Shown here piece after piece: positions 3,412-3,747 of a DNA stretch of 7,216 bases. This DNA is from a virus (taxonomy: Duplodnaviria; Heunggongvirae; Uroviricota; Caudoviricetes), in the IMG/VR virus record IMGVR_UViG_2548876935_000005; one strand, given 5' to 3'. The notes under the pieces are model-generated. The model was not told the DNA's origin, made no database searches, and worked only from the letters and a program-made list of their open reading frames with translations. The first letter of the stretch is position 1, and each line of letters starts with the position of its first letter. The translations under genes were made by a program, and so were the position numbers.

Positions 3412-3747
3412 GTAGACGGTTGGTAGACAGATACACTTAACCCTCTACCAACCATCTACTAATTAATGTTTTGAATTATATAGGTATTTTTAATGTGGTA
3501 GAGAGGTGGACAGTTTATTTTATATTTCTAAACCACGGGGGTATCTAAAAATAGATAGTTATGGGTTCATTTTTAAAATTTTTCTTTTAACTATCTACAC
3601 TGTCTACCATTTAGTAAAAGTCATTAATTATCAATGTATTAATACTGTAGAGAGTTGGTAGACAGTTTGCAGATTGTTTTTTTGTTATGTGTTAATAACA
3701 TTAAATAAATCAAACAATTATATCGGTAGACAGTTGGTAGACAGTTG
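3412..3747. repeat. putative origin of replication: at least 7 iteron copies (consensus TGGTAGACAGTT) in both orientations, interspersed with AT-rich tracts
   Basis: Copies read at 3412-3419, 3422-3430, 3443-3459 (inverted), 3497-3515, 3593-3608 (inverted), 3646-3668, and a perfect tandem pair GGTAGACAGTT at 3725-3735 and 3736-3746. AT-rich spacers such as 3461-3495 and 3669-3723 could serve as unwinding elements. Lies immediately downstream of the replication gene. Confidence 0.7.

Follow-up and report, generated by a model that had tools for sequence, protein, structure and literature searches.

The 7,216-nucleotide stretch analysed here (the window) lies within a 14.6-kb island that carries an integrase and an AlpA regulator and is located at tRNA-Thr beside proA in Escherichia coli. 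Direct repeats of TCCTATTATC, spaced 14.6 kb from each other, mark the ends of the island; Pfam places its integrase among the tyrosine recombinases and its 65-aa regulator in the AlpA family. In E. coli N1420, the gene order starts with the integrase, a hypothetical gene, the 65-aa regulator, an AntA/AntB antirepressor and an Icd-like gene, and continues with small genes, DUF4222, the gene for a 601-aa protein, a gap, ProQ/FinO, PerC and hypothetical genes. The genes lie mostly on one strand. Features of phage-inducible chromosomal islands (PICIs) seen here are the integrase, the AlpA regulator, the att repeats, the length of 14.6 kb and a gene set in which no structural genes are annotated; packaging or interference genes were not recognised among them. 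Judged by its gene content, the island has the plan of a Gram-negative PICI (PMC6092414), and the element is most likely a PICI-like island of the phage-satellite type.

The gap between the 601-aa gene and the ProQ/FinO gene has a 100% identical counterpart in the N1420 chromosome, and 92 of 5,426 complete E. coli genomes (~1.7%) contain it with an identity of at least 90%. All of these matches are chromosomal, and none is annotated. No other part of the window is as AT-rich as the gap, which has 0.28-0.36 G+C in 200-bp windows. Base composition shifts sharply along this part of the island, from 0.28-0.30 G+C in the putative origin to 0.58-0.63 in ProQ/FinO and PerC (3800-4500) and then to 0.33-0.47, where small membrane ORFs accompany a 380-aa ORF (4714-5856) that is lipoprotein-like and matches no family. 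These shifts within window positions 3700-6500 suggest a cargo of mixed ancestry.

A published PICI, EcCIMP1 (locus L094, E. coli MP1; PMC11773190), has the tRNA-Thr/proA att site in common with locus L001, has a near-identical integrase, and, like L001, has MarR/Vat island neighbours. Identity of the two elements was rejected, as the replication gene of EcCIMP1 encodes a 918-aa protein with TOPRIM and DUF927 domains. To go by such gene comparisons, islands at one att site evidently swap whole replication modules. Sister alleles of the 601-aa protein with P4-type iterons (L002, L003, L005 and L007) are found in islands that encode capsids, with genes for a major capsid protein, a prohead protease, a portal and a terminase; one such sister island, 16.5 kb long, was deposited as 'Escherichia phage vB_KppS-Ant'. 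One replication module thus serves satellites with and without capsid genes.

The Rep protein and its C-terminal domain

The rep gene (1578-3383, plus strand) encodes the 601-aa protein, a relative of phage P4 alpha that combines a predicted initiator with a superfamily 3 (SF3) helicase. Its start is overlapped by the DUF4222 gene (1291-1581). Pfam annotation identified D5_N, DUF5906 (SF3 helicase) and Pox_D5 C-terminal domains, and the NCBIfam model of the P4-family primase C-terminal region (TIGR01613) scored 94 bits, which falls short of its curated threshold (108.7). P4 alpha and residues 146-592 of the protein share 49% identity, in an alignment that covers both the helicase and the origin-binding domain, and residues 232-434 match the helicase of SaPI5 PriRep5 (PDB 7OLA, E 2.7e-8). 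Residues 491-592 (3048-3353, plus strand), the predicted C-terminal origin-binding domain, match the P4 alpha C-terminal domain (PDB 1KA8; phmmer, E 1.1e-18), the winged-helix origin-binding domain of that protein. Taken together, the SF3 helicase and the 1KA8-type domain support the view of the sequence-only reading that the 601-aa protein is an origin-binding initiator and helicase.

The primase part of P4 alpha (zinc and TOPRIM domains) has no counterpart in Rep (alignment A1); rep is named "primase family protein" yet has no recognisable primase domain. Residues 1-145 (1578-2012) matched no Pfam or NCBIfam family. This segment is nearly unchanged in the Rep of locus L012, which has a different helicase core, and it looks like a swappable domain.

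Within the putative origin-binding domain, alignment A1 revealed a variable hairpin at residues 563-583 (YKRAKCTKGPDKGRTITNVLL; 3264-3326, plus strand) that carries a five-residue insertion, PDKGR. In a single-sequence AlphaFold model of residues 485-601, this segment forms a strand-loop-strand at a pLDDT of 41. This low-confidence model and general knowledge of the 1KA8 fold hint that the variable segment is the wing, and we regard the hairpin as a candidate specificity determinant. It also marks where the exchangeable block of protein tail and origin begins on the left.

The repeat array downstream of rep

The rep stop codon ends at 3383 and is followed by a 369-bp intergenic region (3384-3752; 70-72% A+T overall), in which the 11-bp unit GGTAGACAGTT recurs twelve times, grouped into six pairs, with both orientations represented. 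The sequence-only reading, which had noted at least seven copies in direct and inverted orientation, was correct and even understated the array. Allowing three mismatches, the unit has 13 matches between 3411 and 3746, and the others are scattered. At two mismatches or fewer there are 11 copies against 0.155 expected (largest count 3), and at one mismatch or fewer six against 0.014, where the expected counts come from 2,000 dinucleotide-preserving shuffles of the sequence of this AT-rich gap. An unbiased search of the gap for the best 11-mer family returned GGTAGACAGTT again, with 11 copies; shuffles averaged 4.9 and never exceeded 10. The repeats are far above chance. Outside the gap, the 24-kb island locus contains only scattered single matches with two mismatches, and neither the 14.6-kb island nor rep itself contains a second iteron cluster, only isolated matches with two to three mismatches at chance level.

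The pairs follow the order ++ -- ++ (73-bp spacer) -- ++ ++, with six units on each side of the central spacer. Pair 1 (3411-3432, plus strand) consists of AGTAGACGGTT and GGTAGACAGAT, and pair 2 (3439-3460, minus strand) of GGTAGAGGGTT and AGTAGATGGTT; together they form an inverted repeat with 17-nt arms. Pair 3 (3497-3515, plus strand; GGTAGAGAGGT and GGTGGACAGTT, overlapping by 3 bp) and pair 4 (3589-3608, minus strand; TGTAGATAGTT and GGTAGACAGTG, overlapping by 2 bp) form the left and right flanks of the central spacer, on which they converge. This spacer (3516-3588) is 73 bp long with 77% A+T, contains an AT palindrome (~3566-3583) and a weak thirteenth unit (3550-3560), and is our proposed zone of melting and helicase loading. 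Pair 5 (3646-3667, plus strand) reads TGTAGAGAGTT GGTAGACAGTT, the first unit being GGTAGACAGTT in other alleles, and pair 6 (3725-3746, plus strand) consists of two exact copies of GGTAGACAGTT. The latter is the perfect 11-bp tandem pair described from the sequence alone (3725-3735 and 3736-3746), and the AT-rich tracts described between the repeats are likewise present, the spacers between pairs having 77-86% A+T. By nearest-neighbour energy, no 40-mer in the window is less stable than that at 3454-3493, a possible alternative melting site, and the gap also holds three of the five that rank next.

Two matches to the IHF consensus WATCAANNNNTTR, TATCAATGTATTA at 3629-3641 and AATCAAACAATTA at 3708-3720, lie 4 nt upstream of pairs 5 and 6, respectively. 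They are the only two in the 7.2-kb window, both on the plus strand and both in the gap, and shuffled sequences gave a probability of 0.0016 for two or more matches. The site at 3629-3641 is conserved in alignment A2 of the alleles, and allelic changes in the IHF matches fall only at N positions of the consensus; such matches are missing from the other, related origin types. A motif search of the region found no DnaA box, GATC, 13-mer or lambda-type cosN.

A comparison of seven alleles of the window-type origin (91-100% identical) showed that every iteron position and orientation is kept. Indels among them are confined to the central spacer, save for a one-base deletion in a T-run of EC11 (~3679), and other alleles often have better iterons than the window copy. 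The overall identity of 95% among these close alleles makes the comparison of iteron and spacer conservation of no use as a rate test. A 51-aa ORF (3506-3661) was rejected as a gene, as alleles carry indels of one, two and three bases inside it.

If transcribed, pairs 1 and 2 (iterons 1-4; 3400-3480) would form an RNA hairpin of -25.2 kcal/mol (z -5.8), which begins ~20 nt past the rep stop, with its iteron arms 28 nt past it. No T-run directly follows, so that the hairpin would be at most a weak attenuator or a 3' stabiliser. An Rfam scan of the whole window with E values up to 1 gave no match, and thus no known RNA in the gap.

Joint variation of the iterons and the Rep tail

Sister alleles in E. 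coli share ~83% DNA identity over the helicase core and carry, in the gap following rep, seven to nine exact copies of the P4-type 7-mer core GTGAACA (9-12 copies of this type when mismatched units are included). P4's own iteron, GGTGAACA, is thus found at the same place in these alleles. Identity between the window and the GGTGAACA-type alleles falls from ~0.8 to ~0.4 at 3240-3300, inside the last 40 codons of rep. The location of this break within the 3' end of the gene indicates that the tail and the origin move together.

We compared tails and repeats more widely, scanning one genome per species (80 further loci, ~90 in total) for the most repeated 8-mer family in the 450 bp after the rep stop. 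GTAGACA iterons (4-9 copies), with GTGAACA present once at most, were seen in all ten alleles that have the PDKGR tail KRAKCTKGPDKGRTITNVLL. These ten are spread over E. coli, E. ruysiae, Kluyvera, Enterobacter and Lelliottia, and one is a 790-aa full-length P4-like protein. The ~70 alleles that lack the insertion have GTGAACA or a motif of their own, and a few other tails come with the distinct motifs GGTGGAGA, CAGACAGT, GGTGTATA and GGGTATAC. Origins of the GTGAACA and GTAGACA classes (~280 bp) can be aligned with each other, and about ten iteron sites then fall in shared columns and in the same orientation. Every one of these sites is switched between the classes, with GGTAGACA at all of the ~ten homologous sites in alleles with the insertion tail, and the spacer motifs are kept. 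The helix preceding the variable hairpin is identical in both classes.

This co-variation indicates that the protein tail and the repeats changed together and were swapped as one block. Because the sequences are related, the number of independent switches is small, at roughly five or six iteron classes. We rejected the idea that one wing motif alone determines specificity, since L083 and L085 have similar hairpins and different iterons.

Locus L012 (E. coli ETEC1734, 55-2882) is a natural mosaic, in which the window-type 3' end of rep is kept from exactly window position 3266. It encodes a 583-aa Rep of the EcCICFT073 type, followed by its own iteron cluster with the motif GGGTAGAYA (1803-2110), a RepA pseudogene fragment, ~120 nt of the window-type rep end, a window-type origin and ProQ/FinO. 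In this mosaic, the tail and the origin thus behave as one exchange unit. The island carries two iteron arrays, and the core GGTAGA is common to both.

From these comparisons, we propose that the last ~40 residues of Rep and the iteron array may form a swappable specificity cassette, in which the PDKGR insertion and nearby changes in the hairpin would retarget Rep from GGTGAACA to GGTAGACA, the helix remaining unchanged and all iterons being converted. We consider the chances of this proposal to be evenly balanced. If it holds, satellites within one cell would fall into replication compatibility groups, and cross-talk would be predicted with Reps of the EcCICFT073 type (same core, 9-bp spacing). 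GGTGAACA and GGTAGACA would represent a natural pair of initiator-iteron specificities on one origin scaffold, of use for studying how winged-helix initiators read DNA and which satellites coexist, and for building non-interfering replicons.

A putative replication origin and alternative roles of the array

We consider it very probable that 3384-3752 is the vegetative replication origin of the 14.6-kb PICI-like island at tRNA-Thr/proA. The sequence-only reading had already placed an iteron origin, in a SaPI-type layout, just behind the replication gene, and this is supported by the island type, the Rep domains, the co-variation and the precedent of EcCICFT073. In that PICI, a cloned rep-ori segment maintains a thermosensitive plasmid, and deletion of rep or ori impairs this (PMC6092414). 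In SaPIs and Gram-negative PICIs, as a rule, the iterons lie immediately 3' of rep and flank an AT-rich centre in opposite directions (PMC6092414, PMC9371898). The layout of the window fits this rule, with pairs 3 and 4 facing each other across 3516-3588. Our reading annotates a previously unannotated 369-bp gap as the putative origin of an uncharacterised satellite island.

We infer Rep binding, the melting site, the role of IHF and dependence on a helper phage from sequence. In the mechanism that we propose, the island operon would be switched on and the 601-aa Rep made, a predicted hexameric helicase of the SF3 group whose C-terminus carries a winged-helix domain for origin binding, as in P4 alpha. 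Through this domain, Rep would bind the twelve GGTAGACAGTT iterons. The pairs at 3497-3515 (plus strand) and 3589-3608 (minus strand) would position Rep on either side of the 73-bp spacer, and the outer pairs would build a larger nucleoprotein complex, possibly helped by IHF-induced bends at 3629-3641 and 3708-3720. The AT-rich DNA would then melt and the helicase would load itself there. As Rep has no primase domain, priming would have to come from another protein.

The best-surviving alternative, although an unlikely one, is that the cluster is a cis enhancer resembling P4 crr, which Rep would bind while initiation takes place elsewhere (for example inside rep, compare P4 ori2) and is reached by looping. 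The position of the cluster matches that of crr, directly 3' of alpha, with the P4 ori 4.5 kb away, and deletion of ori in EcCICFT073 cut plasmid establishment and colony numbers without abolishing them (PMC6092414). However, a second iteron cluster is found neither in the 14.6-kb island nor inside rep, the EcCICFT073 rep gene and its downstream region sufficed for replication (PMC6092414), and in SaPI origins with this layout, melting occurs at the AT-rich centre of the origin itself (PMC9371898).

The relation of the array to the gene downstream raises another possibility. The ProQ/FinO-family gene (3753-4295, plus strand; Pfam ProQ, 9e-23) is followed by the PerC gene (4292-4579; Pfam PerC, 1e-31). 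Its ORF has two in-frame ATGs, at 3753 and 3765, of which RefSeq uses the latter. GGGG (GGAG in one allele) precedes the ATG at 3765 by 8-11 nt, and no such motif accompanies that at 3753; the start is therefore likely 3765, which places pair 6 probably 18 nt from the gene. The distance of 7 bp given in the sequence-only reading stands, as 6 nt, for the ATG at 3753, and becomes 18 nt with the RefSeq start. The minus strand at 3798-3814 has a weak terminator-like hairpin (five pairs) with a T-run, antisense within the 5' coding end of ProQ/FinO.

No promoter consensus was found beside tandem pair 6, and promoter-like sites do not exceed the numbers in shuffled sequences (3 versus 2.0 +/- 1.5 expected). 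Terminators are absent after rep and inside the putative origin, so that read-through across the origin may reach ProQ/FinO and PerC. The array could be read mainly as a transcriptional operator through which Rep or another regulator controls ProQ/FinO-PerC or read-through from rep, replication being secondary or absent. Such a role would fit the exact tandem pair 6-18 nt upstream of the ProQ/FinO start, the position of a bound protein in the path of transcription from rep to ProQ, and the strong hairpin that iterons 1-4 would form in a transcript (-25 kcal/mol, z -5.8). We nevertheless consider it very improbable: the same iteron architecture stands upstream of unrelated genes in other islands, the terminal pair of related origins lying ~35-60 bp upstream of genes for SSB, PerC-like or hypothetical proteins; the iterons track the Rep tail, not the downstream gene; and none of the promoter-like sites is beside the tandem pair. 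The narrower suggestion of the sequence-only reading, that pair 6 may double as the operator of the ProQ/FinO gene, is neither favoured nor disfavoured by these observations, and a regulatory side effect of Rep binding on the downstream genes is plausible. As a lesser version of the specificity-cassette proposal, the exact terminal pair may let Rep occupancy gate the expression of ProQ/FinO and PerC.

Finally, a packaging site (cos or pac) or an array of integrase arm sites in place of an origin is hardly credible: Gram-negative PICIs do carry cos sites with cosB repeats of their own (PMC6739421), and the combination of IHF sites with repeats in two orientations is reminiscent of lambda cosB and att arms, but a lambda-type cosN is missing from the window, the att core repeats are ~8 kb off, at the ends of the island, and across islands that differ in integrase and packaging module, the repeats follow the DNA-binding domain of Rep.

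Comparison with known replication systems

Iteron origins of theta plasmids such as pSC101, F, R6K, RK2 and P1 have an adjacent initiator gene and repeats next to an AT-rich element where unwinding occurs, often together with IHF sites. Their initiators (dimeric RepA, pi or TrfA) recruit the host proteins DnaA and DnaB. The window resembles these origins in that the putative initiator is encoded beside repeated sites and an AT-rich element. It differs in that the initiator is itself a predicted SF3 helicase, that DnaA boxes and GATC are absent, and that the units are shorter and occur in both orientations.

The layout resembles that of the SaPIs, in which the gene just upstream of six to twelve iterons encodes an SF3 helicase that has a winged-helix domain at its C-terminus, and the iterons on each side of an AT-rich centre point in opposite directions (PMC9371898). 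The helicase core of Rep also matches that of PriRep5 (7OLA). The sequence kinship is distant, however, being limited to the ATPase (E 2.7e-8); moreover, the host is Gram-negative, the iterons measure 9-11 bp instead of 5-6 bp, and the regulatory module features AlpA in place of Stl.

EcCICFT073 provides a Gram-negative counterpart, with a Rep that is 43% identical to that of the window. Its origin likewise lies directly 3' of pri-rep, with short iteron sets flanking an AT-rich stretch, and its island plan (int, alpA, Icd-like, DUF4222, rep, ori, PerC) is shared. The gap following its rep gene contains 8-12 copies of GGTAGACAG, the identical 9-nt iteron core, and one deletion primer of PMC6092414 contains GGTAGACAGGGTAGACAG. 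The two origins differ in tandem spacing (11 bp here, 9 bp in EcCICFT073), in length (369 bp here, ~290 bp there and ~280 bp in other relatives) and in the two IHF consensus matches, which are absent from EcCICFT073. In addition, the island described here occupies the tRNA-Thr/proA att site, does not carry capsid or Rpp genes and has ProQ/FinO directly after the putative origin.

The comparison with P4 extends to the iterons themselves. In the P4 record, the 3' end of alpha is directly followed by crr (a type I iteron cluster), and ori is 4.5 kb away; crr is a required cis element, whereas DNA synthesis starts at the separate ori. P4 iterons read GGTGAACAG(T) and are arranged in tandem at 10-11 bp spacing. 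Similarly, the window has an iteron cluster directly 3' of the gene, in both orientations and with tandem spacing of 10-11 bp, its Rep is 49% identical to alpha over residues 146-592 with the 1KA8 domain included, and sister PICI alleles use the P4 iteron itself. Unlike alpha, Rep has neither a zinc nor a TOPRIM primase domain, and the terminal hairpin of its putative binding domain carries the five-residue insertion. The iteron is GGTAGACAG here and GGTGAACAG in P4; in this origin, the P4 iteron TGTTCACC (GGTGAACA) is represented by zero copies of GTGAACA, with GTAGACA found instead. The two-part ori and crr arrangement of P4 is replaced by one cluster, with no 120-bp internal duplication and no terminator between gene and cluster.

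Architecture and function of such origins are already published for related islands, and the current understanding is unchanged by our analysis. As judged from these comparisons, the origins of Gram-negative PICIs belong to the crr type of array and would be read by a binding domain of the P4 type, the terminal hairpin of which switches in concert with the iterons. This modest new point ties the origins of Gram-negative PICIs directly to the alpha and crr system of P4.
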